A DNA stretch of 64,000 nucleotides from an uncultured virus (IMG/VR IMGVR_UViG_3300031659_000001) (taxonomy: Duplodnaviria; Heunggongvirae; Uroviricota; Caudoviricetes), in the IMG/VR virus record IMGVR_UViG_3300031659_000001. One strand, written 5' to 3'. Below the pieces are notes generated by a model. The model searched no databases. It was not told the origin of the DNA and saw only the letters and a list, made by a program, of their open reading frames with translations. Position numbers and translations under genes: made by a program. Position 1 is the stretch's first letter. Every line of letters begins with the position of its first letter. Positions 8,733-44,455 of this stretch are shown here, in pieces.

Positions 8733-9623
8733 ATGGCGGGTGTTCACATTTTCGAGGTTGGCCCCCGTGATGGCTTGCAGGGCCTCGAACATGTGGTAAA
8801 TACTGCCGACAAAATCGAACTGGTTGCCCTTCTCCGAGAAGCGGGGCTGAAACAGATCGAAGTGACCTCATTTGTCCATCCGAAGCGAGTTCCGAACATG
8901 GCTGATGCGGAGGCTGTTTATACGGGTGTTTGTATGGATTCTTCAAATAGTGTCGGCCTTTCAGTATTGATACCGAATAAGCGTGGAATCGACCGTGCTA
9001 AGGCTGTTGGAGCCACTAATTTCAACATATTCTTCTCTCCTAATGACGATTTCAACCGTGAGAACTACGGATTGTCTCTTAAAAACATACTCAAAGGGTA
9101 TGTTGAGGCACTTGAGGGAATCGACCCGAAATTGGTTCGTGTGTATATTTCGATGGCGTTTGGCGGTTGTATGGATGAATTGTCCAGTGCTGTTAAGTCG
9201 GGCCTTACATTTGGGGATAAAATTGTTCTTTGCGACACGGAGGGTGATGCTACGCCGTTTGACATCGCTCTTGGTATAGATGTGGTGTATGACTTGACAC
9301 GAAACATAGGACTTCACCTTCACAGGGGTAAGCACTTGATGGCGAATGTTGAGACGGCCTACCTTCATGGTGTTCGAGAGTTTGATTCGAGTATTGGCGG
9401 TTTGGGCGGTTGTCCCTTCATGCCGAAGTCGGGTGCCAATTTAGCGACGGAGGAACTTGTTGCTTGGTGCGTGAAAATGAACATTCCCTGTGGCGTTGAA
9501 GAGGATGCTTTGAAGCCAGCGATTGCTCTTGCTCATCGGATTAAGAATCCCGACCTTCGCACTACGCTCCGCAATAAGGTTCGTGAAACGAAGGGTAAGA
9601 TCCTACGGGTGGTGAAGAGATGA
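8733..9623 (+). CDS. hmgL: Hydroxymethylglutaryl-CoA lyase (DRE-TIM metallolyase), auxiliary metabolic gene
   Basis: EVGPRDGLQ, IEVTSFVHPKRVP, HLH metal ligands, GLGGCPF...GANLATEEL. Confidence 0.9.
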   Translation: MAGVHIFEVGPRDGLQGLEHVVNTADKIELVALLREAGLKQIEVTSFVHPKRVPNMADAEAVYTGVCMDSSNSVGLSVLIPNKRGIDRAKAVGATNFNIFFSPNDDFNRENYGLSLKNILKGYVEALEGIDPKLVRVYISMAFGGCMDELSSAVKSGLTFGDKIVLCDTEGDATPFDIALGIDVVYDLTRNIGLHLHRGKHLMANVETAYLHGVREFDSSIGGLGGCPFMPKSGANLATEELVAWCVKMNIPCGVEEDALKPAIALAHRIKNPDLRTTLRNKVRETKGKILRVVKR

Positions 9624-10123
9624 GTGCTTTTGAAATGGCTTGGAGCATTGTGAAGTCATCTACTTTTGCGCCTTACGGTCACATTCCCGACACTGTTGCA
9701 GGGATGGAACAAGACGGTGGGCTGTTTAGCCTTGACTTTACTTCGTTTTATCCTCATTTTGATAAGGATAGCCACAAGCCCGATACAGCGACCCCTACTG
9801 GGGAAACAAACCCAAGTCAAGTGGGTGGTCGGGGAACCTCGGAAACAATATGCGAGAGGTGCGCTGAAAATCTAACGGATGGTTTGAGCCATCGACATTT
9901 GGATGAGCCGCCGAAACGCCATCTCATTCACGGACTTGCTCCCGATGAGGACTATGACAACGAAATGGCCGGTTGGGAGAACCGTCACCGTTGCCCGGAT
10001 GGTGTATCGCCGTGGGATTTGTTCGTTGAGCAAGGTCGTTCATCGGAGGGTATGGAATTAGGGCACGCTCAAGGGGAGCAATACCACCGTTCATTAACAG
10101 AAAGTGAGGGTGATTGGGAATGA
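9620..10123 (+). CDS. Tagged hypothetical protein
   Basis: N-terminal tag MSAFEMAWSIVK; CERC. Confidence 0.7.
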   Translation: MSAFEMAWSIVKSSTFAPYGHIPDTVAGMEQDGGLFSLDFTSFYPHFDKDSHKPDTATPTGETNPSQVGGRGTSETICERCAENLTDGLSHRHLDEPPKRHLIHGLAPDEDYDNEMAGWENRHRCPDGVSPWDLFVEQGRSSEGMELGHAQGEQYHRSLTESEGDWE

Positions 10124-10644
10124 CCGCTTTCGACACCGCTTGGTTGTTAATAAAACGCCAAACTGAATTGGGTGAACACCATGAGGATTTTCCCAGTAGT
10201 CATGGGCCTGTCACACATTATCATGGAACGAGTGAAAAGAGACACACCAACCTCGAAGAAATGGACGCCAATATGAGGCGTAATATGAATACTCGGAATC
10301 CTTTTAGGCGGCTTTTTCCAAAGAAGTTACCCTTACAACAGGAAAGTATGACAAACCGAATTAAACAGGATGGGTTACAACCATCGGGTGGTAATTATGG
10401 CGAAGGAGTATATACATCTCCCGAAAAGCCTACCTCCCAACAATATGCCGATATTGCCGGAGAGAGGAACGCAAGTGAGCCTACTATGTTCGGAGTTAGA
10501 GGTGGGGGTTTGGAACAGCAAAACAAAAAAGACATATTCGGCAATTTTACTATATTCCCAAATCAAATACCACCGGAGAGGGTGGTTCAAGTTCCTACTA
10601 CTCAAGAGCAACCTGCTTGGATGCAAGAGGATGATGCCCCATGA
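10120..10644 (+). CDS. Tagged ADP-ribosyltransferase-fold protein
   Basis: Tag MTAFDTAWLLIK; HYHGTS...GLQP...GVYTSP...QYA...IPPERV. Confidence 0.6.
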   Translation: MTAFDTAWLLIKRQTELGEHHEDFPSSHGPVTHYHGTSEKRHTNLEEMDANMRRNMNTRNPFRRLFPKKLPLQQESMTNRIKQDGLQPSGGNYGEGVYTSPEKPTSQQYADIAGERNASEPTMFGVRGGGLEQQNKKDIFGNFTIFPNQIPPERVVQVPTTQEQPAWMQEDDAP

Positions 10645-11267
10645 GCGCATTTGACACCGCTTGGCAATTGTTCAAGGAGAGCGCAAGCAAGGAGGAATAC
10701 CGTGCTATGCCTACTGATGAGTTTGGTTTCCTTGATCGTAAGCACATAGGGGCGCAGGATTTCGAGTTATCGCCGGAAGATGATGATTTGGTAGGTGGTG
10801 CTGAATTGGGGATAGATGGTTCTTATTCCCGTTCCCGTGTTCATCCTTCTAATATCGGTCGTCGTAAAGACCGTGAGTTCGATGCGGCCCAGCAACGGTC
10901 GATGGCTACCAAGATTGGTAGGATTTCGGCGCATGAGGCCACCCATCAAGCGATTCACAGTGTTGAGCCTTCTTTGCGGAATAATAGTATTGCCCAAGAG
11001 TATGGTGCTTACGCTGGCGAATCCGCCCAAGATGCTCACTATGAGCCTAAAAACAGGATGGATCAGATACTTAGGCACCCGCAGGTTCAAGACACCAAGG
11101 GTATTGAAAGGATTTTAGAGGATCTTGTTGATGGTGGTATTCGCCCCGATAGGCAAGCGCAAACTATGGGCGAGAGGGCGAGATGGAATGCTCAACGGGC
11201 TATGGAAGAGGAAGAATCGGAAGAGAAGTGGTATAACGCCGTTCATGGTAGGAGTAGTTGGATATGA
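10641..11267 (+). CDS. Tagged zincin-like metallopeptidase
   Basis: Tag MSAFDTAWQLFK; AHEATH plus downstream EYGAY. Confidence 0.6.
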   Translation: MSAFDTAWQLFKESASKEEYRAMPTDEFGFLDRKHIGAQDFELSPEDDDLVGGAELGIDGSYSRSRVHPSNIGRRKDREFDAAQQRSMATKIGRISAHEATHQAIHSVEPSLRNNSIAQEYGAYAGESAQDAHYEPKNRMDQILRHPQVQDTKGIERILEDLVDGGIRPDRQAQTMGERARWNAQRAMEEEESEEKWYNAVHGRSSWI

Positions 11268-11785
11268 CCGCTTTTGATGACGCCTTTGCTCTTTTGAAAA
11301 TGCCGTATCATATGACGGATGCTTCAAACCTGCCTTCGATTATGTCGGAGGGTTTGAAACCAATTCATAATGGGACTAATGCAGGGTTGAAGGAGGCTTT
11401 AACCGACCTTGAGGAATACCACGACTACGACCGTGATGAAGCGGAGGCTCATTTGAAACGACAGGCTGACTATTACGGGATGGACAAGGTTGAAGATTTG
11501 TGGGATGGCGAGTGGATATATGGTGCCGATGAAGACCATGCTAATGCCGAGGACTTAGCGAATTATGCAAATGGACATGAAACGCCTGTTTTACTTCACG
11601 CCGGTCAGTATGAAGACTGGATGCCGGATTATGGATATTTTACTGGACACCAAAGGAGTCCCCGGACTATTAGGCCGGAGAATCTCAAGGTAATGCAACA
11701 ATTCCCTTCAAGGACTGAAAGTGGATTAGACCCGGAAGCATACGAGGCTATGGTTCGAGAAATCTTGGAGGGGCTTGGAATATGA
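11264..11785 (+). CDS. Tagged ADP-ribosyltransferase-fold protein (DarT/Tpt1-like signature)
   Basis: Tag MTAFDDAFALLK; YHMTDASNLPSIMSEGLKP...IY...TIRPENL. Confidence 0.6.
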   Translation: MTAFDDAFALLKMPYHMTDASNLPSIMSEGLKPIHNGTNAGLKEALTDLEEYHDYDRDEAEAHLKRQADYYGMDKVEDLWDGEWIYGADEDHANAEDLANYANGHETPVLLHAGQYEDWMPDYGYFTGHQRSPRTIRPENLKVMQQFPSRTESGLDPEAYEAMVREILEGLGI

Positions 11786-12207
11786 CCGCTTTCATCACCG
11801 CTTGGGCTTTACTGAAAATGCCCTTTGTCGCCCCCGACAAATTACCAAAAAAGGCATGGGATGGGGTTATGGGTTCTGTTTCCGACTTTGAACACCAAAA
11901 AAGAGATGACTTTTGGGTTGATGATGAAGCGAACCCGAAGGCTTGGGGTCTTCACCGCCGTGCTGACTATACAACGGGGAACGGAACTCACATTGGGGCA
12001 CGCATTCCATACTTTGAGATAGATCCTTCTATGAGAGGGAAGGGTAAGGGGCGTGAGGCTTTGGTGCAAATGATTGCTGAAATGCGAGAGCATGAGAAAA
12101 TGAATCCCGACTCAAAGGTTATGGGGCAAGATGTGATTGAATCGGCCAAAGGATTTTGGGAACGCATGTATGAAGACGGCATCATACACGATTATACGGA
12201 GGAATGA
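11782..12207 (+). CDS. Tagged GNAT acetyltransferase
   Basis: Tag MTAFITAWALLK; IDPSMRGKGKG (acetyl-CoA motif A); SAKGFWERM. Confidence 0.7.
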   Translation: MTAFITAWALLKMPFVAPDKLPKKAWDGVMGSVSDFEHQKRDDFWVDDEANPKAWGLHRRADYTTGNGTHIGARIPYFEIDPSMRGKGKGREALVQMIAEMREHEKMNPDSKVMGQDVIESAKGFWERMYEDGIIHDYTEE

Positions 12208-12209
12208 GT

Positions 12210-13037
12210 ATGACCGCCTTTGACATAGCCTTTTCGCTTCTCAAAGAGTGGAGTCCTAACTGGCGTGACGAGATTTCGAGTATTGATACCGATATTGATA
12301 CGCACGAACTCTTGACTCAAGGGGGTGCCAAGGGTTTGGGCTTAGGCGGTGGCGGCATGATGGAAACCTTCAAACACCCGAATGACCGTAGATTCGTTGC
12401 GAAAATCCCGAATGGCTGGGGCGAGGGTGCTGGTGCGGTTGGTAAAGACCGTGACAATGCCATTGTTTTGGCGTTGGAGGAATTAGGCTTCCCAGTTGCC
12501 TCGGAAAAATACATTGACGCCTCTAATGAACTTTCGGAGGGCGGGCAGGGCCATTACAACATCCAGCCTAAACTTTCCCTCAAAAACCCCGACTGGCCGC
12601 CGGATCCCTCTAAGAAACCGGAACGCAGTGCCCATGTAGCGCATACAGCCTTAGCCCACATAATTGGGGATAGGCACCCTATGAACTTTGGCTACGATAC
12701 AAAGGGTAGAGCGAGGATGCTTGACTCTCAAGTGGAGCATCGAGGTGCCGATTGGTGGCCGGGCGAGTCAAATGCAGATGGGCAAGATAGTGCCGAACAA
12801 TACCAAGAATACCTCACCAACAAGAGGAACATGCAATTACCTGTCACGGCACTCTTGGATAGGTTGCCTGATCTGGATGAGGACAACAATTTCCTCGAAA
12901 GCAATACGGGCGATCAAGAATATCTAAGGGCGCAAAGAGATGATTTGGCCCTTTGGCTGGAACAGATGGAACCACATTCCGACAATCCTCCGCAATTGAC
13001 GGTTGGAGGCAAAGCGATTTGGGGTGATGACTGGTGA
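12210..13037 (+). CDS. Tagged HipA/PI3-PI4-kinase-like protein
   Basis: Tag MTAFDIAFSLLK; Gly-rich loop, VAK, IIGDRHPMN catalytic loop, MLD. Confidence 0.6.
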   Translation: MTAFDIAFSLLKEWSPNWRDEISSIDTDIDTHELLTQGGAKGLGLGGGGMMETFKHPNDRRFVAKIPNGWGEGAGAVGKDRDNAIVLALEELGFPVASEKYIDASNELSEGGQGHYNIQPKLSLKNPDWPPDPSKKPERSAHVAHTALAHIIGDRHPMNFGYDTKGRARMLDSQVEHRGADWWPGESNADGQDSAEQYQEYLTNKRNMQLPVTALLDRLPDLDEDNNFLESNTGDQEYLRAQRDDLALWLEQMEPHSDNPPQLTVGGKAIWGDDW

Positions 13038-14053
13038 GTGCATTTAGTCGAGCCTTTACCCTCATTAAGATGCCCATTGACTGGGACACGGTGACTGAAC
13101 CCGTGTGGACTGATAAGCCGTCCGACAAACCACCCCACTTCATGGAGGCTAAAGACCACCGTGGACAGGCCCAAAGAAACTCACGGGATTTACAAAGCGG
13201 TGAAGCATCAGCCCAATGGATTCACCCGCACACGGGAGAACGCTACAACATTAGGATGGATAAGTGGCTTCGTAATACTCTCAATCCCCCAAAAAACAAA
13301 CCCGCTTGGGAACCTTACAGGCGTGAAGGCGGTGAAATGTCGGTGACGCAACCTATGAGTGAAGAGCAATTGGCCGAAGCGGCTCGTTCAAATGAAATAG
13401 ATATAGACGAAATTAAAGAATCAATACACGGCCAAGACCGCCATGTGGGTGGTGCCGACTTTTACAATCATACCGACCCGTTCGGTCGTCGGTATCATAC
13501 CCGTGCAGACACCGCCCAAACCCAAGATCCCCGTTCCACCCCTATGCCGGATTTACCAAACCGCCTACAAGGGCTTGGTTTGGGGACAGACATGTATGAT
13601 TTATTGACCCATTGGGGTGTTCCGTTGAAGCCGGACTCGGCGCAATCGGATAAAGCGAGGCGACTTTGGGCAAGGAATCAAGGGTTTGACCGTGAAACGG
13701 CTGATATGATGGCCGTTGAAAGAAACTACTCGGCAAAACCCTATGAAGGAATACTCCAACAAGCGGTGGCGAAAGTGCGGGAGGCGGGACTACACAATTC
13801 ATTGACCTACGACATAACGGAACCCACTACTGTCGTCGGCAACCTCAACATTTGGGATGCTTTGGGTTATCCCGAAGCAACGGAAATCAAAGAATGGATG
13901 GATGCCATGGTTGAGGTTGAGGGCTTAAAGCCGTTTAATGAAATGCCTCCATATTTAGATGAGCCGAAAGGCATGGGGTCGGAAGATCAATACGACCGTT
14001 ACGATAGATTAAAAGAAAATTGGACATGGAGGGGTCATAATGAGCGCAATTGA
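13034..14053 (+). CDS. Tagged GNAT-like protein
   Basis: Tag MSAFSRAFTLIK; LQGLGLGTDMYD; QSDKARRLW. Confidence 0.55.
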   Translation: MSAFSRAFTLIKMPIDWDTVTEPVWTDKPSDKPPHFMEAKDHRGQAQRNSRDLQSGEASAQWIHPHTGERYNIRMDKWLRNTLNPPKNKPAWEPYRREGGEMSVTQPMSEEQLAEAARSNEIDIDEIKESIHGQDRHVGGADFYNHTDPFGRRYHTRADTAQTQDPRSTPMPDLPNRLQGLGLGTDMYDLLTHWGVPLKPDSAQSDKARRLWARNQGFDRETADMMAVERNYSAKPYEGILQQAVAKVREAGLHNSLTYDITEPTTVVGNLNIWDALGYPEATEIKEWMDAMVEVEGLKPFNEMPPYLDEPKGMGSEDQYDRYDRLKENWTWRGHNERN

Positions 14054-15818
14054 TAGAGTGTGGCATTTGATGAAATCGGAAATGTATTTCCCCCGTAAAG
14101 ACGGTATGGACGATGGGTCAAGCGCAGGAACTTATTGGGGGCCGGAAGCAAACGCCACCACCACCGTTGATTATCAAAAACCACGCTGGTGGCATCCTAA
14201 AGAGCGCAAGTTTCAAGCGGATTACAATAACATGGAGAGTGAAAAACACAACAAAGAGCGTGCAACGGGAACAGAACAGCGTATTCCTATGACCGCCGAG
14301 AACACTCAATATGGTGGCCCTTCGACAAGAGTGATGGATGATGATGTAAGAACCGCCAATGAACCATTTACCCAAGAGGAACGGGCGGAACGAGGGGAGT
14401 TTGCCCAGCAAGGAGATGTTCCTTTTAGAAGAGGTGCTTCTCAACCGAGAACTACTACTGTTCAATCCGATACAGCAAAGTTCCACGGAAGTTCAAACTT
14501 GCTTGATATGAAGGGCAACGAAATAGACCGAGGTCGAGTGGACAGAAATAACAATGTAATGGATCTCGATAGTAAGGCACCGCAAAAATTGGGTGGTATG
14601 CAAGATTATGAAACCATGAATGGTGTCAATTTAGCGGCTTTTGGTAAATATGGGTGGACTGACGAGATGCTTTCGGCGGAAGAAGCCGAAAATAAAACAC
14701 CCGAAATAACATCCACTCTCGCCCACGAAGGAACCCATGCGGCAATAGACCAGCCCATAAGTAGTGCGGTTGCAGAAGGGGAATTACCGAGAGCGAATTA
14801 TAATATGGCACACGAAATAGGTGCTTATTCGGGACAATTTGCGGGAGAAGAAAAGGAAGTAAATGACCGCCTCTCATATCACCCTTCGACAACAGCAAGA
14901 GGGAATAAAGTGCCAGCCAAATACCAAAGGCAACATGGCGGGGAACAGGTAAAAATGCCCCGACCGATAGAATCACAGGGGGATATTAAGCAAGCGGGTG
15001 AACCTATGGGTGCATTTGATGAGGCTTGGCATTTAATCAAGGCACCGTGGAGCGTTGATACACCACAAGGCACATACGGCAAGGTCACGGGGCCACTTTA
15101 CTCCGGCGGTGACAGAATCAACGACGAGTTCCGATATTGGACAAAGGACAAGGAAGAAGCATTGGCCTATGCGATGTATGGATCTGCTGTTCCCGAATCG
15201 TCGTTTAATCAAAGTATTCTATCTAATTTGGGATTAAGTCATCACGGGGTTCCACCTATGCGCCAAACCTACCCAGCAATCAAAGTGGCACCCGACCCCG
15301 GCTTCGATGAAGACGGAAACCCTGCGTCGTTCGTTACAGCCGACCCGCAATCAATGGGTTACATTCAAGACGACCTTGAAGGTATGGATGGCGAGTTTAT
15401 GGATGAAGACGAACTTTATGCGTGGATTGCTTCGATGATGCCCGACCATGATATGACACCCGAAGAAGAGAAGAGTGCCCATAGAGGCTGGCATTACAAC
15501 GACGAAGGGGATGAGGTGGCACCAAGAGCAGTTCAACCAGTAAATGCTTTAGGAACAACCGGATATTACTATGAAGACCATGAACGAGATCAACACATGT
15601 CGGAGGCATTAAAACGCCTTCAACAAGGTGCGTCGGGTAAAATAGCACTACCCGATGAGTTCCAAGGGCAAATGTCCACATCGGAAACCGATGATCTCAT
15701 GGAGAGGGAAATTGATTTAGCAGACTGGAATAATGGTATGGAAGAATGGGAAAGGGACTTCATAAGACGCAATCGTTCCGAAGACGCCGAGTTATTGGAC
15801 TACCCCGATATGGAGTGA
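14040..15818 (+). CDS. Two-module tagged protein: HExxH peptidase plus ART-like module
   Basis: Tag MSAIDRVWHLMK; AHEGTH...HEIGAY; internal tag MGAFDEAWHLIK followed by LYSGG...YWTKDKEEALAYA. Confidence 0.6.
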   Translation: MSAIDRVWHLMKSEMYFPRKDGMDDGSSAGTYWGPEANATTTVDYQKPRWWHPKERKFQADYNNMESEKHNKERATGTEQRIPMTAENTQYGGPSTRVMDDDVRTANEPFTQEERAERGEFAQQGDVPFRRGASQPRTTTVQSDTAKFHGSSNLLDMKGNEIDRGRVDRNNNVMDLDSKAPQKLGGMQDYETMNGVNLAAFGKYGWTDEMLSAEEAENKTPEITSTLAHEGTHAAIDQPISSAVAEGELPRANYNMAHEIGAYSGQFAGEEKEVNDRLSYHPSTTARGNKVPAKYQRQHGGEQVKMPRPIESQGDIKQAGEPMGAFDEAWHLIKAPWSVDTPQGTYGKVTGPLYSGGDRINDEFRYWTKDKEEALAYAMYGSAVPESSFNQSILSNLGLSHHGVPPMRQTYPAIKVAPDPGFDEDGNPASFVTADPQSMGYIQDDLEGMDGEFMDEDELYAWIASMMPDHDMTPEEEKSAHRGWHYNDEGDEVAPRAVQPVNALGTTGYYYEDHERDQHMSEALKRLQQGASGKIALPDEFQGQMSTSETDDLMEREIDLADWNNGMEEWERDFIRRNRSEDAELLDYPDME

Positions 15819-15822
15819 GAAA

Positions 15823-15942
15823 ATGGAGGGTGACTCTTTGGGCAACCTACTAATAAAGGCAGTGGGAGCATTTGTCCTAATCCCAATTCTTATCATACTG
15901 CTCCCCCTCGCCTATCTATACTCGGTGGTGGTGGAACAATGA
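15823..15942 (+). CDS. 39-aa single-transmembrane microprotein
   Basis: Read manually: MEGDSLGNLLIKAVGAFVLIPILIILLPLAYLYSVVVEQ; ATGA overlap with 15939. Confidence 0.5.
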   Translation: MEGDSLGNLLIKAVGAFVLIPILIILLPLAYLYSVVVEQ

Positions 15943-16688
15943 CAATCAGTTCCTTCGACCAAGCCTTCTTACTACTGAAAATGCCCTTCGTTCCCGGTTC
16001 AGTGCGCCCTTTAGAGGGTGAGTTCACGGAGGGTGACGACGACCACGCCCCAGCGCAAAAGTATGTTGGTGACTTCTATGACCCCACAGACGACCGGACA
16101 CTCCCAATCAACATCGAACCACAGCGAGAATGGATAGGTGAAGATGACAAGCGTGGTTTTGGGCACAAGCATAACAACATAGATCGGATGGATGCCGCAG
16201 TTATCCCTATGGACGCAATAGATGAAGATAGAGAAGCCGAGCAACAGTTCGGTTTGGGTCAAAAAAACCCATTCGCCGCCGTTATTGATAACAAAATCGA
16301 GCGTGTCTTTGTTCCATCGGATTTACGAAGAAGGTCTATGGGTGCAGGGCTTTTGGATGCTTTAGAAGAATACCGAAAGAACTTCTCAAAATACGGTAAG
16401 AGTGGGTCGTTTGGCCCAGCCCGTGAGAACAGTGCTGACATGCTTGGGCTTTTAGCAAGCAGGGGCATTTTTCCTAAAGGGTTGGCATCAATACCTAAAG
16501 AACAGAACTGGAACGACCCGGACACTCAATACATGCACAGCGAGTTCGGGCGTGGGTCAAATTGGGTTCATCCCGATGAAGCCGAAAAAGTGCCTAAATC
16601 CGAGTGGCAACAACGCTGGCTTGATGCTGGCAAGAGATTCGCAGAATATCAAGAGCGACAGGAACAGGAAGAGGATGAAGAATGGTGA
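15939..16688 (+). CDS. Tagged GNAT-like protein
   Basis: Tag SSFDQAFLLLK-MP; VFVPSDLRRRSMGAGLL. Confidence 0.55.
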   Translation: MTISSFDQAFLLLKMPFVPGSVRPLEGEFTEGDDDHAPAQKYVGDFYDPTDDRTLPINIEPQREWIGEDDKRGFGHKHNNIDRMDAAVIPMDAIDEDREAEQQFGLGQKNPFAAVIDNKIERVFVPSDLRRRSMGAGLLDALEEYRKNFSKYGKSGSFGPARENSADMLGLLASRGIFPKGLASIPKEQNWNDPDTQYMHSEFGRGSNWVHPDEAEKVPKSEWQQRWLDAGKRFAEYQERQEQEEDEEW

Positions 16689-16879
16689 CAGCATTTACCA
16701 AAGCCTTTTCGCTACTGAAAGCCCCCTTTAAGGCTAAATACACTGGCAATTGTAAGACCTGTGGTCGAACCATTGACGCTGGTGAATGGGTGAACTACAA
16801 TTCAATGCTTGGTGGTATTCAATGCCCGACCGATTGTAGCAAGGGATATGGCTTCGGATGGAGAGGTGGGAAAGAATGA
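16682..16879 (+). CDS. Tagged small Zn-finger protein
   Basis: Tag TAFTKAFSLLK; AKYTGNCKTCG...CPTDC. Confidence 0.65.
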   Translation: MVTAFTKAFSLLKAPFKAKYTGNCKTCGRTIDAGEWVNYNSMLGGIQCPTDCSKGYGFGWRGGKE

Positions 16880-17358
16880 CCGCCTTTGAACAAGCATTCG
16901 CTTTACTGAAAATGCCATATCACGGAACTACCATGGAGGCGGCAAAGAAAATCCTCCAAGAAGGTGGCAAGGCTATGAATCCCGGTGGTGCGCTCATGGG
17001 CGACCCATCATTTTACATGACTCCCGATGAACTCATGGCAAGAGCCTATGCCGCAAGTCGTTCTATTTCTCATGGTAGTCCTCCTGCTTTGTTGTATATT
17101 GATGATGATCACATAAACAGCCGAGATGATGTTAAGGATTTGGGATGGAATGTCCTTGGATCTGGTGAGGTGGCTCCCGAACACATTAGCCTTGTTGATG
17201 ATTCGGAGGAAGAATTGGCAGGAAAGGAAATTGACGAGGAATCGCTCAAAGAAGCAGGGTGGTTTATTCACCGTAATAAAAATCAAGGTAGGGCTAATGA
17301 TAAGCGGCTATGGGAAGAGAGGCCAGTGGGCCATGTGCAGGAGTGGGACAAAGAATGA
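16876..17358 (+). CDS. Tagged ADP-ribosyltransferase-fold protein
   Basis: Tag MTAFEQAFALLK; YHGTT...ILQEG...FYMTPDELMARAYA...VAPEHI. Confidence 0.65.
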   Translation: MTAFEQAFALLKMPYHGTTMEAAKKILQEGGKAMNPGGALMGDPSFYMTPDELMARAYAASRSISHGSPPALLYIDDDHINSRDDVKDLGWNVLGSGEVAPEHISLVDDSEEELAGKEIDEESLKEAGWFIHRNKNQGRANDKRLWEERPVGHVQEWDKE

Positions 17359-18113
17359 CCGCCTTTGAACAAGCGTTCGCACTTATCAAAAATGCGACAT
17401 TGGAACCGCCGGAAATGTCATCACCACCACCGCCGATGAAAATACCCGATAAGGACGGTTGGGATGATGATGACAGCCTCCCTGCTGACGAATGTTGTAT
17501 TCAAATTAGCACAAAATGGTATTATGAAACAAGTGCTTGGGGTCACGAAGAATGGGACATGCCTCATGCTATGGGCGACGACGATCCCGACTACCCGGAA
17601 ACCTATGACACCCTACAATACCACACACAGAATGCGTGCGACAACCTCCGTGAAAAATTAGAAGAATGGGCAAGCGGCAGGTTTGGTGAGAAGCACAGTG
17701 TCAATTATGACAAAGAGGGTCATACACAGGGTCTTTTAGGCCCGCAAGCGGCAAAAACCGGATTGAATGAAAAATTACAGGCATTCGCACGCCAATTACT
17801 TACTGAATGGGATGATTGCGCTTCTAAGGCAAATCGCCGTCATCCTTCGTCTTATTTCACTGCCTCCGCCGACCCGCAAACGACCGCCGTCGAACAAGCA
17901 TGGGCTTTAATCAAGGGTATTATATCCAAATTGCGACAATGCCGTGACTGTGGCAGGATTGCTTATCGCAATAGTGGGGTTTGCGGGGTTTCGCTCAAAG
18001 AACCAGTAGATGGAATCAAAAACAATTGTTCCGGTTCAATGCAAGTTATCCGCTATCCCACTGATGAACAAATCAAAGAAGCCGATGAATGGAGGGCGGG
18101 TGGTTATGAATGA
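17355..18113 (+). CDS. Two-module tagged protein (unknown domain plus Zn ribbon)
   Basis: Tag MTAFEQAFALIK; internal TAVEQAWALIK followed by CRDC...C...C. Confidence 0.65.
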   Translation: MTAFEQAFALIKNATLEPPEMSSPPPPMKIPDKDGWDDDDSLPADECCIQISTKWYYETSAWGHEEWDMPHAMGDDDPDYPETYDTLQYHTQNACDNLREKLEEWASGRFGEKHSVNYDKEGHTQGLLGPQAAKTGLNEKLQAFARQLLTEWDDCASKANRRHPSSYFTASADPQTTAVEQAWALIKGIISKLRQCRDCGRIAYRNSGVCGVSLKEPVDGIKNNCSGSMQVIRYPTDEQIKEADEWRAGGYE

Positions 18114-18826
18114 CCGCCTTTGAAACCGCCTTCGCATTACTAATGAAGTCCCTCCCGATTGAGGTAGATTGGGATAACAAAAAATTACCCCCTCCGATTG
18201 AGGTTGAATGGGATTGTAAAAAATGTGGCAAGTCCAAGAGTGGAACGGATAAGTGCCAATGTCCTGCTGTCAAAAAAGGCGGGCCAATGGACATGGCTTG
18301 GCGATTGCTCAAGTCACCCCTCTTCTACCCCGAAGAAAAATGGGAAGACACGATAGACCCCAACAAAACACCTACTGCACGGGAAAAAGAAATGTTTCCC
18401 GATTACATGTCAGATCTAATGACACCAGCATCGCCATTTGGTGATATTTCTTGGGAATCCAAAGATGGGATGGCAAGAGGTGTCGCTCAAACGAACTTCG
18501 ATACAGGGCAGGTAGAAGTTCACCACTTTGAAGTCGCTACCACTGTGCGGGATGGTGGCCTCGGTGAATCATACCTGCGTGAGATGATTGCGGAACTTGA
18601 ACAGGAAATGGCAGGTCAAACAGAATTAGACTCTTTTCATGCTCACGCTACAAAGGTCGAACCCAGCAAGGCTGGCTTTTGGGACAAGATGGTAGATAGA
18701 GGTGCTATACACAGTGCTTCAACACGATCCAATCCCCGTGTGACAACAGATGGCAAACACTTCGCACCTAAAATAAGCAGTGATCAATTACAACCATGGG
18801 AATGGCCGACAGAAGACGAGATTTAA
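18110..18826 (+). CDS. Two-module tagged protein (Zn finger plus GNAT)
   Basis: Tag MTAFETAFALLMK; CKKC...CQC; internal MDMAWRLLK; VRDGGLG; GFWDKM. Confidence 0.65.
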   Translation: MTAFETAFALLMKSLPIEVDWDNKKLPPPIEVEWDCKKCGKSKSGTDKCQCPAVKKGGPMDMAWRLLKSPLFYPEEKWEDTIDPNKTPTAREKEMFPDYMSDLMTPASPFGDISWESKDGMARGVAQTNFDTGQVEVHHFEVATTVRDGGLGESYLREMIAELEQEMAGQTELDSFHAHATKVEPSKAGFWDKMVDRGAIHSASTRSNPRVTTDGKHFAPKISSDQLQPWEWPTEDEI

Positions 18827-29463: not shown

Positions 29464-29674
29464 TGGGCGCAATTATTCCGCCTCGCCGCCACCAGCGTAT
29501 GAACAAGTGGTGCCCACACCGAAACCCGTCGTTCAACACAAATCGTTGAAATGTGCGGCTGTCAAGAAAGACGGGACACCGTGTAAAAATTGGCACATGA
29601 TTGATGGCCTATTTTGTAATGCTCACCGCCGAAACAGTCAAAAGTGAAATAAACCCAGCCCCTATCGGTAAAAC

Positions 29675-30385
29675 ATGACGGGGAGGCGTGTGCGTAGAAA
29701 CTGCTCTTTTTGTCAGCATGAATCAAGAGATCGATACGAAGAACAAATCCGTATTGGATTGCTTGAGGTATTTGAATTGGATTTGAACCAAGACTGGGCG
29801 GAGGGAACAGCACACCGCCACATGAGGCGTCATTCCGGTGAGTATCATAATAATAGCAATACAGAATGTCCTGTATGCACACACCCCGAAAGAGCCAACC
29901 TTGAAGCGGCAATTCTCAACGGTCTTGTTGGAATGGCCGATATGGCGACGGATTTGGATGTCACCGAAACGGCTCTCGCCCAACATATCGAACATCACAC
30001 TCAACCCGTAATACAAAGACAAGTGAATATGGAGGTATTGCCAGCCGCCATCGAAACCGCACACACCGCTATGGCACAGACGGAACGAAACCTCCAACGC
30101 CTTAACGGCTTATTCAACGACCACTTGGATCTGATGCAAGAGGAACGGCAGGAAACAGGAACTCTTGATTACAAGGGTCTTGACACCGCAGTGAAATTAC
30201 ATCGTGAAGTTCGTGACACTTTAACCGACATTAGCGAATACCTAATTAAAGCCGAATCACTCGGCTCTAACGAGCAGGTGAGTGTCTTGACAGTTATACA
30301 GGCCCACTTCTCCGAAAAGTCACCGGAAGAGTGGCGAGTTATGCGTAAAGCATTAGCCGATGCGGGGGTTCTTGAAGATGGTTGA
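29675..30385 (+). CDS. Tandem Zn/HTH repeat protein; possible terminase small subunit
   Basis: Two repeats of CxxCxH..R...H...H followed by helices; lies upstream of the head module. Confidence 0.5.
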   Translation: MTGRRVRRNCSFCQHESRDRYEEQIRIGLLEVFELDLNQDWAEGTAHRHMRRHSGEYHNNSNTECPVCTHPERANLEAAILNGLVGMADMATDLDVTETALAQHIEHHTQPVIQRQVNMEVLPAAIETAHTAMAQTERNLQRLNGLFNDHLDLMQEERQETGTLDYKGLDTAVKLHREVRDTLTDISEYLIKAESLGSNEQVSVLTVIQAHFSEKSPEEWRVMRKALADAGVLEDG

Positions 30386-30938
30386 AGCGAGATTTATTGG
30401 AGAGCCTGTCGAGTGTCCCGAATGTGGAAATCCACATGGCGGCATGATAAGAGAAGAAGAAGGTCATGTTAATTTCGTTTGTAATAAATGCGGTTACATG
30501 GAACGAGAAGAGGATTTCAAACCTGTCGTGAAAAAGGCCGCTTGTGCTACAATGAATTGTGAAGACAAATGCGACAAGAAAGATTGGTCTTACTGTGGAC
30601 AAGGTAATTGTTCCTCATGTGGTGGTGGGTGCGGTGATGATAATTGCTCAAAGTGCAACCGCCGTCCGAAATGGGGTTCTAAGAAAGCATCCACTGACCG
30701 AGCGTTCAGCGCAGGTTGGTCTGTGGTGAAATCAAAATCACCAAGGTCTTGCCCCATGTGCCTATCCGAAGAGTTGGAAATAGATACAAAAGAAGATAAC
30801 TTACAGGAAATAGCAGAAAAAGGAGGTCGGTTTCAAGGTATGAGCGATCAGGAATTGAAGCGTGAGAGGGAAAAAACAAAGCAAGGCCCTAATTATTGGG
30901 GATATTGCTTAAACTGTGACGAAGATATGGAGGGATGA
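30378..30938 (+). CDS. Cys-rich multi-Zn-finger protein with internal tag
   Basis: Many CxxC motifs; DRAFSAGWSVVK. Confidence 0.65.
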   Translation: MVEARFIGEPVECPECGNPHGGMIREEEGHVNFVCNKCGYMEREEDFKPVVKKAACATMNCEDKCDKKDWSYCGQGNCSSCGGGCGDDNCSKCNRRPKWGSKKASTDRAFSAGWSVVKSKSPRSCPMCLSEELEIDTKEDNLQEIAEKGGRFQGMSDQELKREREKTKQGPNYWGYCLNCDEDMEG

Positions 30939-30944
30939 TTGAAA

Positions 30945-31367
30945 ATGGATGAACGAGGGTATCAAACCATTCCAGCCTTGATGTTAAAGCATACAGAATA
31001 TGCCGACTACCTTCACGGCGATAACAACATTTACACCATGCTTGAGGCACTACAAATGTGTGATGCACTCGAAGAAGTCATTTCCGTTTGGAAAGTAGGA
31101 CTCGACGCATTCGGCCTTACATCTCAAGAGGATTGCTCAAGTGAAGCCATCGGGTCAGTTATGCTAATCCGCATGGCATACCACGATTTGAAAAACGCAC
31201 TACCCGAAGTTCCCCGTGAAGAAGCCGACGAACTCCTTCGCTCACTCTCCAAAGCATTCTTGCCAATGGCAAGATCTTATGCTAAAACACCAATGCTCGC
31301 TCATTGGTATATTGAACTACCACTACGAGTGGCTGAAACATACAACCGACTACGGGGGCAACGATAA
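30945..31367 (+). CDS. Hypothetical protein
   Basis: About 140 aa helical ORF in operon context. Confidence 0.65.
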   Translation: MDERGYQTIPALMLKHTEYADYLHGDNNIYTMLEALQMCDALEEVISVWKVGLDAFGLTSQEDCSSEAIGSVMLIRMAYHDLKNALPEVPREEADELLRSLSKAFLPMARSYAKTPMLAHWYIELPLRVAETYNRLRGQR

Positions 31368-31672
31368 TGGCAAAGAAAGACAAAATAGGACTATGCAACG
31401 ACTGTGATAAACAAATGGTTCGCACTGACGATACATGGGTGAGATGCCCCGATTCGGAATGCGGCTATCAAGATGTTCAGCCGCACCCGGATAGGGTTGA
31501 AAAGGCGTTCAGCGTCGGCTGGTCTGTGATTAAAGAAGAAGGAAAAAAATGTGGCGGAAAAGTAACAACCCCGCCATATTCGGGCTACGATACTACTGCA
31601 TCGTGTAAAAAATGCGGCAGATCTCCGGGGTTAGCGTGGAAATCCGGGACACCGTGCCCATGGAAGGTGTGA
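31367..31672 (+). CDS. Zn-finger protein with internal tag
   Basis: CNDC...CPDSEC; EKAFSVGWSVIK; CKKC. Confidence 0.65.
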   Translation: MAKKDKIGLCNDCDKQMVRTDDTWVRCPDSECGYQDVQPHPDRVEKAFSVGWSVIKEEGKKCGGKVTTPPYSGYDTTASCKKCGRSPGLAWKSGTPCPWKV

Positions 31673-31677
31673 TACAT

Positions 31678-32004
31678 ATGGCCGAACCAACGAAAACCTT
31701 TGACATGGGATGTCCACATATGAGAATGGGTGAAGAACCGTGTATAGCATGTGGCGGCAAGCGTGAATCTAATACAAAAGACCCTGCTAAAAAAGTCGCC
31801 AAATCTCTTGGCCGAGCATTCAGCACAGGCTGGTCTATCGTCAAAAACAATCCACACCTACCCAAAGAAGGTTCACTCGACGGAGTTCTTTCATCGTCGG
31901 GGCGACCCGATGTCGTCCCATCAAACAATGCTGGGATGCCGAGAGATCCAGATTTATTAGAACGACTCAAGAGAATGCAAGCCGCTAAAGAAGCAAAACG
32001 ATAA
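31678..32004 (+). CDS. Small protein with internal tag
   Basis: CPH...CIAC; GRAFSTGWSIVK. Confidence 0.6.
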   Translation: MAEPTKTFDMGCPHMRMGEEPCIACGGKRESNTKDPAKKVAKSLGRAFSTGWSIVKNNPHLPKEGSLDGVLSSSGRPDVVPSNNAGMPRDPDLLERLKRMQAAKEAKR

Positions 32005-32016
32005 CCCATATAGTGA

Positions 32017-33690
32017 GTGATTGAAATGCCCCCGCAAGCCCCCAACCTTAACCCCAATGATACATCCATACGGGTTCAAGAGTTCACAGGAGGGCATAAT
32101 CCCCGTGAGATGATGGGCGATTACGATGTGAACCCAAATGAAAATGCTGACGGTTTGTCGCATATCAGCCAATTTGGTGCGGCTTCACATGAAACAAGAG
32201 AACAGATGGATCCGGCGACACGCCGCAAAAAAGCACTCAAAGAGATGGAGGGCGACCTCCCACACATTTCAATCCATGCGGAGGAAATGGCCGAAACACT
32301 AAATGACACACCTATGGTGAACGGTGAAAGCGAATTGCTTGAATCGGCTATGGGTGTTGATATGGGCCATCGAAACGGTATGGGTATTTCAGCCGGTGCC
32401 AGCGTTGGTTCTGTTCGGCGTGAAGGGCCGGGAATGGTATTCGGTCGTAGCAACGACGCATTTGAAGACGCTTGGTCGTTGGTGAAGAACGATGGAGACA
32501 AAGACCTCCCAACAAGAGAAGAGATGATTGCCGACATGGAACAAATGTCGGCTGATCAGATGGACGACCAATGGGCGGTAGATATGACCGACGAAGAAAG
32601 AAAAACTTCTCAAGGCTACATGCTTCACGACTTAATTGAATTAGGGGACGCTGGTATGATGGGGCCAAGATCAACGGGTTTCGCATCCGGGGCTGACATA
32701 AAACCACATCAAGCCTTAGAAGCCCAACAAAAAATCAAAGAACAAATACCTCACCCGCTTGGTGGTTGGCCCGAAGATTCATTCAAATGGTTCGCACCTA
32801 CCCCGGTTGGCGAACTACCGGAGGATTGGAACAAAGACATCCAAGCATCATCCGACACCGTATTCATTTCCGATATTACAAAATCAAAGCGAAAGAAAAA
32901 GGGGCGTAAGTATGAAGAGGATGAAGAATCCGAAGAGGATGAAAAGAAGTCTAAAAAGAAGCATAAGCGAGAGCGAAGGCGCAAGGCCAAAAAAGGCAAG
33001 CAAGAAGCAAGCCGTCAGCCAAAAAGCAAGACCTCCCGCCGTGCCGCTTCGACTGAACAGAACCTCACTCGCCATACTAAGCGTCAAGCCTTTGCACCTC
33101 GCCGTATGTTTAGTGGCAACCCACGGGCAAAGGATATGCCTTTGCGTCTTCGTGATCCTGTTGCTTACCAGCGCAAATTAGCCTCCGAGAAGTTCCGCCG
33201 TGAAATGGGGTCACTCCCTACTGGAATGTCGGCACACGCTGACACCCGTGGTATCACTGGCGAAAAGGTGCAAACTATCGGTATGAGTGGGCGAGGAACC
33301 CGTATGGGTTCACAGCCTTCATCCAGCAAAGGCACATCATTCAAAAAACCAAAGAACGCTGACCGAGAAGGGTCACTAATACACGACCCTCTTAGTGGGG
33401 ACGCTTTGAAAATGGAGAAGGGTGCCAAACTTGGCCTCCGAGGAACTGACATCAGTGGCTTCAAATTAAACGAACTCCAAAAACTAAAACAGCAATTGAC
33501 TAAACTCCTTACCGCCGTAGAAAAATTAACAAAGGCAACACCCGAACATGACGCTGACGCTAAGAGAGGAAGTCAAGCAAGTGAGGAAAGAAACAGTGCC
33601 CCAACCGGCCCGACCGAGAACCTCAAAGGGTGGAAGTTTGAAGACACCACGCTAATGCCGGTCGCATTTGCGGGGGCCAGCAAGCGATGA
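32017..33690 (+). CDS. Hypothetical protein with internal tag and K/R-rich region (probable virion protein)
   Basis: NDAFEDAWSLVK; highly basic segment. Confidence 0.75.
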   Translation: MIEMPPQAPNLNPNDTSIRVQEFTGGHNPREMMGDYDVNPNENADGLSHISQFGAASHETREQMDPATRRKKALKEMEGDLPHISIHAEEMAETLNDTPMVNGESELLESAMGVDMGHRNGMGISAGASVGSVRREGPGMVFGRSNDAFEDAWSLVKNDGDKDLPTREEMIADMEQMSADQMDDQWAVDMTDEERKTSQGYMLHDLIELGDAGMMGPRSTGFASGADIKPHQALEAQQKIKEQIPHPLGGWPEDSFKWFAPTPVGELPEDWNKDIQASSDTVFISDITKSKRKKKGRKYEEDEESEEDEKKSKKKHKRERRRKAKKGKQEASRQPKSKTSRRAASTEQNLTRHTKRQAFAPRRMFSGNPRAKDMPLRLRDPVAYQRKLASEKFRREMGSLPTGMSAHADTRGITGEKVQTIGMSGRGTRMGSQPSSSKGTSFKKPKNADREGSLIHDPLSGDALKMEKGAKLGLRGTDISGFKLNELQKLKQQLTKLLTAVEKLTKATPEHDADAKRGSQASEERNSAPTGPTENLKGWKFEDTTLMPVAFAGASKR

Positions 33691-36654: not shown

Positions 36655-36660
36655 TTTCAA

Positions 36661-38724: not shown

Positions 38725-38730
38725 TGCTTA

Positions 38731-43299: not shown

Positions 43300-43348
43300 T
43301 TAACCCCAACCTTCATTTAAGGCTAAGGCATGGGACAGGTTGGTTAAG

Positions 43349-43723
43349 ATGACAGAAGGCTTTCTCGATTTTGGAATAATAGCGAAAATGGATCCGATGG
43401 CACGCCGAGCAACGGCGAGTATGGAGGCCATGCAACAGGCGATAGTCCACAACAATATGGGCGATGTAGCAAAACATATTGAAGAAGCAAAAAACGCTCT
43501 TTCAATCCTTGAGCGTGACTTAAACCTCGCAAAATCATTACAAGCGTCAGCAACAATCGCTAAGAGCGATGGTGAAATTATTCAAGGGGATGGAAGCATG
43601 ATGGGGAACATTGGCCGCCACCATAACACAGTAAGTGATTATGACGGCACCGAAGGCGCAACCGTAATGGGCGTTTCACGCATGGGCCGTTCTTCAACAA
43701 TTTGGCGACCACAGCAGGAGTGA
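43349..43723 (+). CDS. Hypothetical head-module protein
   Basis: ORF after portal; IAKM, LAKS, IAKS sites. Confidence 0.65.
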   Translation: MTEGFLDFGIIAKMDPMARRATASMEAMQQAIVHNNMGDVAKHIEEAKNALSILERDLNLAKSLQASATIAKSDGEIIQGDGSMMGNIGRHHNTVSDYDGTEGATVMGVSRMGRSSTIWRPQQE

Positions 43724-43728
43724 TTACT

Positions 43729-44325
43729 ATGGCTTACCGTAGTTCTCCGTCTATTGCTCAACGAATGCGAGTCTTAGACTTCGCTAATTCACTACGCAAG
43801 GCTGATGGCTCCGACAGTGGTGGTAGTGGACAAATGGTTTCAAACCCTATGCCAACAACACCTCCCGCTTCTCCGATGAGTTCATCGGCTGAAATGGCCG
43901 CAGGGCCAACACCCGAAGAAATGAGTGCTTTGGTTTCAAGTGGTAAAGTATATGGCAACAGCAAAGAGGCTTTGGCTGACTTTGAAATGCGCCTTACTGA
44001 ACTTGCTACTGATATTACAGCGCACATTGGAACTATCGGGCAATCCAAATACACAGAAGATCTTGACGGCGACTCCGTTATGGGTCACGCTTCTTCTCTA
44101 ATGGCTTTCCGAAGTCAAGTAGAAGACACTCGAAACTTTTGTGAAATTATCCGACTCAAAGACGCTGGCATGGTTAATCACCTACCCGGTATGGGAATGC
44201 CACCCGAACAGGGCGGCGGCGGAATGCCACCCCAACAAGGACTTCAAAACATGCCCGGCCCCGGCCCAGCAGGTATGCCACCCGGTGGAATGCCTATGCC
44301 CGGCCCAATGATGGGAGGAATGTGA
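43729..44325 (+). CDS. Hypothetical head-module protein
   Basis: GGAGTGA RBS; G/M/P-rich C-terminus. Confidence 0.7.
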   Translation: MAYRSSPSIAQRMRVLDFANSLRKADGSDSGGSGQMVSNPMPTTPPASPMSSSAEMAAGPTPEEMSALVSSGKVYGNSKEALADFEMRLTELATDITAHIGTIGQSKYTEDLDGDSVMGHASSLMAFRSQVEDTRNFCEIIRLKDAGMVNHLPGMGMPPEQGGGGMPPQQGLQNMPGPGPAGMPPGGMPMPGPMMGGM

Positions 44326-44326
44326 T

Positions 44327-44455
44327 ATGGGAAAGGCAGGTGATGTAGGATTTTCTATCCTCAAACGAGAACCTTGTCGATGTGATCAAGATCATGGTGC
44401 AGTTAATGGGCCAAATGGGCCTATGTGCCCAAGATGTGGGGGGCATGTAAGATGA
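44327..44455 (+). CDS. 42-aa tagged Zn-finger microprotein
   Basis: Read manually: MGKAGDVGFSILKREPCRC...CPRCGGHVR; ATGA overlap with next gene. Confidence 0.55.
   Translation: MGKAGDVGFSILKREPCRCDQDHGAVNGPNGPMCPRCGGHVR

Follow-up and report, generated by a model that had tools for sequence, protein, structure and literature searches.

The internal proteins of phage T4 are reported to be diverse defence proteins that have only a capsid targeting sequence (CTS) in common (PMC3012670). In phage HK97, the prohead protease of the S78 family is described as cutting the capsid protein at K103/S104 (PMC10275583), and polyvalent proteins, whose catalytic classes are peptidases, ADP-ribosyltransferases (ARTs), kinases, GNATs and methylases, are predicted to enter the host together with the DNA of the phage (PMC5512222). 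Among the archaeal viruses of surface seawater, magroviruses are reported to be dominant (PMC5434244). Here we describe a stretch of 64,000 nucleotides from an uncultured member of Caudoviricetes (IMG/VR record IMGVR_UViG_3300031659_000001; the whole stretch is referred to as the window), in which a short peptide, the tag, recurs on proteins that otherwise appear unrelated. By analogy with T4, we give an about even chance to the tag being a CTS-like label for head loading, which would dock its carriers in the procapsid. No published description of the tag was found in a literature search that included term searches within the main texts of PMC5434244, PMC11706807 and PMC10160649.

The tag motif and its carriers

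The tag is a motif of ten residues, A-F-x-x-[AG]-[WF]-x-h-h-K (h, hydrophobic), of which most copies were N-terminal, some internal and one C-terminal. The consensus of 421 distinct instances was M-[TS]-A-F-[DE]-x-A-W-x-[LVI]-[LV]-K; in the same set the Lys was followed by Ala (24%) or Met (20%), then by Pro (26%), and then by a stretch rich in Pro, Gly and Asp. A loose peptide regular expression found 21 copies on the + strand of the window and none in the three frames of the - strand. For scoring, a position-specific scoring matrix (PSSM) was built on 327 distinct tags from other contigs, with the window and its own contig (L004) excluded. At 8 bits or more it gave 23 matches on the + strand versus none on the - strand, 22 of them within 9.6-44.4 kb and one at 60706. 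A degenerate DNA form of the tag matched 16 times against 0.01 expected, and none of 100 shuffles reached 16. The tagged genes of the window are given below (ORF, open reading frame; aa, amino acids; bits, PSSM score).

9620..10123, + strand: tagged ORF of 167 aa, SAFEMAWSIVK at 9626-9655 (29.7 bits), cargo without known family (Pfam and PHROGs blank)
10120..10644, + strand: tagged ORF of 174 aa, tag at 10126-10155 (32.9 bits), cargo without assignment
10641..11267, + strand: tagged ORF of 208 aa, tag at 10647-10676 (28.9 bits), HExxH motif by reading, no family match
11264..11785, + strand: tagged ORF of 173 aa, tag at 11270-11299 (35.3 bits), ART-like cargo of the YH.T family
11782..12207, + strand: tagged ORF of 141 aa, tag at 11788-11817 (35.1 bits), weak GNAT-like cargo (Acetyltransf_1 E=0.036, sub-threshold)
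12210..13037, + strand: tagged ORF of 275 aa, tag at 12216-12245, probable kinase-like cargo with a GDRHxxN motif
13034..14053, + strand: tagged ORF of 339 aa with GTG start, tag at 13040-13069 (23.2 bits), in one BLAST group with the cargo of 15939-16688
14040..15818, + strand: two-module fusion of 592 aa, degenerate tag at 14046 (9.0 bits) and full internal tag at 15012-15041 (29.8 bits) which keeps its Met; the second module is of the LYSGG family
15939..16688, + strand: tagged ORF of 249 aa, tag at 15951-15980 (22.0 bits), weak GNAT-like cargo (E=0.062)
16682..16879, + strand: tagged ORF of 65 aa, tag at 16691-16720 (29.3 bits), four-Cys zinc-ribbon-like cargo (phrog_1581)
16876..17358, + strand: tagged ORF of 160 aa, tag at 16882-16911, ART-like cargo of Tpt1/DarT/PARP type by profile match
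17355..18113, + strand: tagged ORF of 252 aa, N-terminal tag at 17361-17390 (26.9 bits) and internal tag at about 17886 (23.6 bits), the latter preceding a Cys-rich C-terminal module
18110..18826, + strand: tagged ORF of 238 aa, N-terminal tag with an extra residue (ALLMK; 16.1 bits) and weak internal tag at about 18287 (10.1 bits)
21770..22192, + strand: tagged ORF of 140 aa, degenerate tag NAIDAGFRVLK, cargo with invariant Cys and His
22193..23362, + strand: protein of 389 aa with an invariant DPPY motif, C-terminal tag at 23318-23347 (28.5 bits) ending four residues before the stop
30360..30938, + strand: Cys-rich zinc-ribbon protein of 192 aa, internal G-W tag at 30702-30731 (19.8 bits)
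31367..31672, + strand: zinc-ribbon protein of 101 aa, internal tag at 31505-31534 (18.8 bits)
31612..32004, + strand: protein of 130 aa, internal tag at 31816-31845 (22.9 bits)
32017..33690, + strand: protein of 557 aa, tag at 32458-32487 (residue 147; 33.1 bits), C-terminal half rich in Lys and Arg
44327..44455, + strand: zinc-ribbon ORF of 42 aa in the head module, weak N-terminal tag KAGDVGFSILK (8.1 bits)

The tagged genes stand in tandem, often with overlapping stop and start codons and with purine-rich sites upstream. Across the 20 copies of the window the codons for Ala, Phe, Leu and Lys vary freely and the residues are fixed, which shows that selection acted on the protein and not on the DNA. 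The seven residues before the Lys were conserved as strongly as the Lys itself. As a helix the tag is amphipathic, one face bearing Phe, Trp and two aliphatic residues; its net charge is about zero, and the tagged proteins had no hydrophobic segment (maximum KD19 <=1.06). In two AlphaFold models, both of low confidence (pLDDT 59.6 and 56.0), the tag formed a separate helix ahead of the fold (residues 2-12 and 2-10). It is not strictly N-terminal, since internal copies were found at 15012, 17886, 30702, 31505, 31816 and 32458 and a C-terminal one at 23318. Some of the internal copies mark gene fusions. We conclude that the tag is a short, portable amphipathic helix which is independent of position. 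Taken together, the sequences suggest that about 20 soluble proteins per virus, a set that changes fast, share it as their address. In a related virus, one protein of 229 aa (L050:4567-5253) has a tag at both its N- and C-terminus.

An earlier note on this DNA had listed 15 N-terminal copies, about 11 internal or C-terminal copies, and about 26 tagged modules in all. The 15 N-terminal copies are all present in the sequence, three of them degenerate: those at 14040 (9.0 bits), 44327 (8.1 bits) and 21770 (below 8 bits), the last being orthologous to a good tag in the related contig L005. The copy at 18110 has one residue inserted before the Lys. Among the internal and C-terminal copies eight of the 11 were recovered, namely 15006, 17883, 18287 (weak, 10.1 bits), 23312 (C-terminal), 30696, 31499, 31810 and 32452, and three were not. 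Those at 20676 (-2.7 bits) and 24247 (-6.5 bits) found no support from the PSSM, and that at 36745 was missed by the gapless score, another segment scoring best, although by eye it is tag-like with one extra residue. What stands of the total is 22 copies of at least 8 bits and one more by orthology, all of one short peptide common to otherwise unrelated proteins.

The motif showed some variation. Residue 6 of the tag was Phe in 9 of the 20 window copies, versus 9% overall. Phe at this residue is also frequent in a close relative (L002), and other lineages have about 90% Trp; this lineage shift could help to find a co-varying receptor residue. A second flavour, A-F-[SR]-x-G-W-S-V-V-K, occurs internally in the small zinc-ribbon proteins at 30.4-32.0 kb, and a G-W form akin to it is the one placed C-terminally on the 22193-23362 protein. 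An eight-residue variant, W-x-x-I-L-K, was not enriched in the window, and its match just upstream of 43340 had no start codon.

Two further proteins with tag-like segments were noted. The one at 36661-38724 (687 aa, directly upstream of TerL) has an Ala/Lys/Pro-rich, histone H1-like C-terminal half and may be a DNA-coating internal protein; it begins M-D-R-Y-D-D-M-L-L-K-A and has a tag-like M-F-S-M-V-W-E-H-V-I-K-A-P at residues 30-42. The tail-module protein at 59611-61185, near the match at 60706, holds G-D-F-D-K-A-G-D-I-I-K with a PSSM score of 10.0 versus a maximum of 7.5 among 780 shuffled proteins, and this segment may be a degenerate tag or chance.

Cargo, distribution and genome setting

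At the level of BLAST the cargo was mostly unrelated, as the earlier note had claimed, with the 20 window tails falling into 15 groups (E<1e-3). At greater depth this no longer applied throughout, as several cargos belong to wider superfamilies, ART-like by profile and GNAT-like weakly, the latter on the basis of weak Pfam matches and a motif read by eye. From related contigs, 337 distinct complete tagged tails were sorted into 162 BLAST families with up to 27 members (single linkage, E<1e-5, at least 50% coverage; a few are false positives of the regular expression). The relative L002, whose thermosome is 89% and capsid protein 95% identical to those of the window, was without the kinase-like and ART-like families and had others instead, so even close relatives carry different sets of cargo.

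The ART-like family (16876 and 11264) has conserved Y-H-.-T, I..EG and IPPE motifs, and its profile matched Tpt1 (E=2e-5) and DarT1 (E=6.5e-5); the Pfam matches of single sequences were all sub-threshold. The protein at 12210 was kinase-like on three counts, each of them weak: it has a GDRHxxN motif, nearly all of the listed Foldseek matches were kinases (E>=0.014), and its Atlas score was 0.94 to the Kinase-PolyVal, T7 kinase and OspG clusters. The HExxH (10641, 14040), Cys/His (21770) and DPPY (22193) motifs are without family support. Several cargos were zinc ribbons, and two long proteins (32017 and 36661) have Lys-rich tails resembling DNA-binding ones. Pfam and PHROGs were blank for nearly all tagged ORFs. 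Profile searches against solved structures gave nothing significant for the LYSGG, kinase-like and Cys/His families or for the DPPY protein, which had no PDB match; for the GNAT-like family the best acetyltransferase was at E about 0.7, and Foldseek with a model of the LYSGG family returned nothing usable. The cargo with a recognisable family resembles enzymes thought to be injected by phages, a likeness that is consistent with head loading.

The tag was present in all 14 thermosome-centred IMG/VR loci, always on the strand opposite to the thermosome and even where the identity of the thermosome was as low as 59%. A strict DNA pattern (M-[ST]-A-F-[DE]-x-A-W-x-h-h-K) matched at least 158 IMG/VR stretches, and all five tag-bearing contigs tested encode a capsid protein of the window's type at 64-90% identity. 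Among 185,579 prokaryote species genomes, one for each species, the same pattern was found on a single contig of 106 kb in a Poseidoniales single-cell assembly. With this viral-looking contig as its only match in a cellular genome, the tag is not a host motif, and the link to the host is direct. That contig is both tag-bearing and thermosome-encoding and looks like a magrovirus genome inside its host; the assembly has three more chaperonin genes on other contigs. In halovirus HVTV-1 neither the tag nor any shared N-terminal peptide was found in the 100,000 of 102,319 bases scanned. In the window the tagged genes share their orientation with the head and tail module, and in a complete relative of 108 kb, with 11 tags among about 120 ORFs, all tags are on the strand of the capsid protein, protease, portal and TerL. 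The tag is specific to these viruses.

From its gene content we assign the window to a magrovirus-like tailed virus whose host group is Marine Group II archaea. Its IMG/VR record, of 64 kb, has an estimated completeness of 61%. A capsid protein like that of HVTV-1, a chaperonin, replication genes set apart from the structural ones and the Poseidoniales link are the features by which magroviruses are recognised, and all were found here. From 8.7 kb onwards almost every gene of the window lies on the + strand, the tail genes also being within this block, and the - strand at 1-8 kb carries replication genes, e.g., a UvrD-like helicase. For the capsid protein the best match in the phage collection was its HVTV-1 counterpart, with about 32% identity. 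The thermosome, the HVTV-1-like capsid protein and the gene layout agree with the published account of thermosome-carrying magroviruses (PMC5434244). The genes to which the text refers are the following.

8733-9623: HMGL-like gene (HMG-CoA lyase family; Pfam E=3e-19), untagged, overlapping the start of the first tagged gene
18823..20400, - strand: thermosome subunit (Cpn60_TCP1 E=9e-166), untagged, within the tagged cluster
38731-40167, + strand: TerL (Pfam/PHROGs)
41500-43299, + strand: portal (Pfam/PHROGs)
49327..50643, + strand: prohead protease with an S78 domain at residues 19-178 (Peptidase_S78 E=1.6e-9), an invariant Ser125 and a scaffold-like C-terminal half
50658..51824, + strand: major capsid protein of HK97 type, with invariant [DE]-[LI]-L-K-[AS]-D at residues 34-39

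The HMGL-like gene, the thermosome and TerL are without a tag, as the earlier note had stated, and so is the portal; the GTPase that it had named as a further neighbour was matched only weakly (E 0.02-0.09). The HMGL-like gene, which directly precedes the first tagged gene, resembles an auxiliary metabolic gene. Between portal and protease, at 45796-49299, a protein of 1167 aa has a nucleotidyltransferase/ligase-like K-x-E-G-x-R motif near residue 728 and is probably what PMC5434244 calls the "ligase embedded in the structural module". The matching position of HVTV-1 is taken by a 1313-aa "zeta toxin" protein, and the window protein may be a packaged multi-domain protein. Two low-complexity proteins are encoded at 35719-36654 and 33687-35729, one of the pair with P-A-G-P-A-A-V-P-L-P-A-A-A-A repeats and the other with a long Pro/Gln-rich stretch. 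For the stretch 9620-19600 only marine DNA metagenomes, and no RNA dataset, were listed as containing it.

The tag lysine, the protease and competing readings

Lys followed 373 of 381 distinct tag cores, part of the set having been fetched by a pattern that demands Lys. The remaining eight comprised four cores with one inserted residue and then Lys, one with Arg, and three hydrophobic false matches. In the loci fetched by their thermosome, with a regular expression that allowed Arg, every tag-like match ended in Lys, and the handful of matches with Arg lay mostly on the other strand and were due to chance. The near-invariant Lys fits a protease of the S78 family, since the S78 protease of HK97 is reported to cut after Lys (PMC10275583), and the protease at 49327..50643 is the candidate enzyme for a cut after the tag Lys.

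The end of the tag also recurs elsewhere. In 39 untagged proteins [LI][LI]K[AMS] was found at 8 sites versus 2.0 expected, the maximum in 200 shuffles being 7. In the capsid protein the h-h-K site is at residues 35-38, in the N-arm, and was invariant in 33 of 33 sequences. The one in the protease, at residues 170-173, was invariant in 14 of 14 and closes the S78 domain, directly ahead of a linker that varies in length; residues 168-173 form an invariant Y-[TS]-[LI]-L-K-M at the junction of protease and scaffold. Other h-h-K[AMS] sites were at residue 15 of the protease, residue 121 of the portal, residue 8 of the 36661 protein, and in the proteins at 23332, 29675 and 59611. This recurrence of h-h-K in head proteins we regard as suggestive. 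When the head-module proteins were scored with the tag PSSM none reached the 95% shuffle level, the sole exception being the tail-module protein at 59611-61185. Distinct from the tag is the highly conserved amphipathic tail with which the protease/scaffold protein ends (residues 411-438), G-[LI]-D-G-W-R-A-L-E-E-L-G-Q-R-A-L, present in all 14 homologues and likely a capsid-binding helix of the scaffold.

If the tag is a head-loading label, its helix would dock the cargo inside the assembling procapsid, with either the capsid protein or the protease protein's scaffold half as docking partner. The S78 prohead protease would then cut N-terminal tags after the invariant Lys, using the same kind of h-h-K site as in the N-arm of the capsid protein and at its own protease/scaffold junction; such cutting is proposed tentatively. 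The packaged enzymes and DNA-binding proteins would be delivered with the DNA into the next Marine Group II cell, and it is in this sense that we infer ejection of the cargo. A more general picture, to which we give slightly less than an even chance, is one of plug-and-play cargo. Here any protein with the Lys-ending helix, wherever placed, would be head-loaded, N-terminal tags would be clipped, and each virion would inject about 20 effectors, among them ARTs, kinases, acetyltransferases, zinc ribbons and DNA-coating proteins, from a stock of well over 100 families. The earlier note had likewise read the tag as a capsid-loading signal, for which portability, virus specificity, head-strand orientation, cargo type and the fit of Lys to S78 give circumstantial and partial support. 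Its second proposal, that cleavage frees the cargo, fails as a general rule.

Several points weigh against head loading. A C-terminal tag would remain on its protein after cutting, only four residues being removed, and an internal one would go with the part upstream of it, so cutting cannot be a general means of release. The tag is not a copy of the scaffold tail; this idea was rejected, as the tail scores below -20 with the tag PSSM. The h-h-K enrichment was spotted post hoc. The tagged enzymes are acidic (pI 4.4-5.9), as are most untagged proteins of the window, and most cargo annotations fall below significance. A thermosome is also encoded by each of the eight tag-bearing genomes with a completeness of 90% or more, which leaves some room for a link to the chaperonin. 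Virion presence, head-protein binding and cutting of the tagged proteins are inferred. A three-chain prediction, in which the N-terminal 40 residues of a tagged ART-like protein were combined with the capsid protein and the protease/scaffold protein, scored 0.00 and speaks neither for nor against binding.

Among the other explanations, the tag could be a linear motif that localises effectors in the infected cell, at a membrane, a replication factory or a host hub protein, with no packaging. An amphipathic helix with Phe, Trp and two aliphatics on one face would suit this, the array of small tagged genes is hypervariable, as is often the case for host-takeover genes, and binding of the tag to head proteins is only predicted. 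We nevertheless consider it unlikely, given the net charge of about zero and the tagged proteins free of hydrophobic segments, the orientation of the tagged genes with head and tail genes and not with replication genes, and the restriction of the strict pattern to one magrovirus-like contig among the species genomes. The strict choice of Lys over Arg (373 to 1) is in addition unusual for plain docking or lipid contact. The earlier note had itself named binding to the viral thermosome as an alternative, and recruitment of effectors as clients of this chaperonin came out weakened, as quite improbable. It draws on the position of the thermosome gene, which is surrounded by tagged genes both in the window and in the 14 thermosome-centred loci, and on the chaperonin in 8 of 8 near-complete genomes, or 13 of 19 over all virus records tested (the records without one were 56-88% complete). 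Every chaperonin found was of the thermosome type, 33-66% identical to the window's. Group B magroviruses are reported to have GroEL in place of the thermosome (PMC5434244), and a search for a tag-bearing genome with GroEL or without a chaperonin found none among the near-complete genomes (n=8). A precedent is the N-terminus of T4 gp23, described as sending fusion proteins to GroEL (PMC3012670). However, tags also sit on zinc ribbons of 42-65 aa and on long, low-complexity basic proteins, which are unlikely clients of a chaperonin, they are internal and C-terminal as well, and in the complete relative the thermosome is about 11 kb from the tagged genes and on the other strand.

The tag might also be a mere propeptide, which would keep toxic enzymes inactive until a viral or host protease cuts after the Lys, and would have no targeting function. 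The near-invariant Lys, followed by [AM]-P or a Pro/Gly/Asp-rich linker, would suit such a role, and ART-like and kinase-like cargo could be toxic. But a helix of ten residues, set apart from the fold by a linker, can hardly be expected to inhibit 162 families, the equal conservation of the seven residues before the Lys argues for recognition of the whole helix face, and a cut at the Lys of the C-terminal tag removes four residues only, which makes this explanation very improbable to us. Finally, the tag might be a relic of duplication, or a nucleic-acid or translation signal without a function as peptide, as the tandem genes, the overlapping stop and start codons and the purine-rich upstream sites could suggest. 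This is contradicted by synonymous codons being free where residues are fixed and by the tags inside and at the end of proteins; the tag is also kept across viruses whose thermosomes are only 59% identical and whose cargo cannot be aligned, and we give this last explanation hardly any credence.

Should the head-loading reading be true, no virus would be known to have a larger set of tag-addressed virion cargo, and the set would be the first of its kind from a virus of archaea. About a tenth to a fifth of magrovirus genes, now "hypothetical", would gain a role as virion-delivered effectors, and there would be a sequence handle on the arms race between magroviruses and the uncultured Marine Group II archaea. 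Its ten residues could also be used to bring foreign proteins into capsids of the HK97 type. Testing the idea would not require a culture of the virus.

Comparison with known systems

The polyvalent proteins (Iyer et al., 2017) cover the same classes of activity as the recognisable magrovirus cargo, for which the assignments here are mostly weak. The nearest named Atlas clusters of the cargo were Kinase-PolyVal (0.94) and ART-PolyVal (0.84, a lead only). Polyvalent proteins combine 2-15 domains in one polypeptide, whereas the magrovirus proteins are small and separate, each with its tag; most tagged ORFs are of 65-340 aa with a single module, and two-module fusions were found at 14040-15818, 17355-18113 and 18110-18826.

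The cargo-loading peptides of encapsulins are likewise short and portable and load unrelated enzymes into a shell of HK97 fold, a likeness which presumes that the magrovirus cargo enters the head. Encapsulins have no DNA, portal, terminase or protease, whereas the window encodes TerL, portal, S78 protease and tail genes, and the peptides show no likeness in sequence. Those of encapsulins are mostly C-terminal, extended and rich in Gly, Ser and Leu. Phage P1 carries anti-restriction enzymes, the Dar proteins (DarA, DarB, Hdf and others), in its head and injects them; their loading is ordered and depends on partner proteins, with no single shared tag.

HK97 gp4 belongs to the same Peptidase_S78 family as the window protease and is reported to cut the scaffold domain off the capsid protein after Lys (PMC10275583). 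There, the cut is preceded by a helix which lines the inner surface of the capsomer. The HK97 scaffold is fused to the capsid protein, whereas that of the magrovirus is fused to the protease, and the magrovirus cut site is only predicted. Duda et al. are said to have found in 2013 that the HK97 protease is encapsidated by means of a terminal peptide.

The T4 CTS is, like the magrovirus tag, a peptide of about ten residues and the sole common feature of diverse, fast-changing proteins; if the cutting is real, the two would also be alike in sharing the cleavage site with major head proteins. The T4 CTS is strictly N-terminal, whereas the tag is also internal and C-terminal, and the proteins with the CTS are packaged, whereas packaging of the tagged proteins is a prediction. 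We claim no relation in sequence. The magrovirus tag ends in Lys, the protease is of the S78 family, the host is archaeal and the tagged enzymes are acidic. Among five Pfam matches of the magrovirus protease there was no T4-type family (gp21, S77), Peptidase_S78 being found instead. T4 gp21 cuts after Glu, and T4 has a handful of tagged genes, compared with about 20 per magrovirus genome, which fall into 162 families across the related viruses. The CTS of T4 is thus the closest known system, from which the magrovirus tag differs in its sequence, in the protease family and putative cut residue, in its independence of position, in scale and in the domain of the host.

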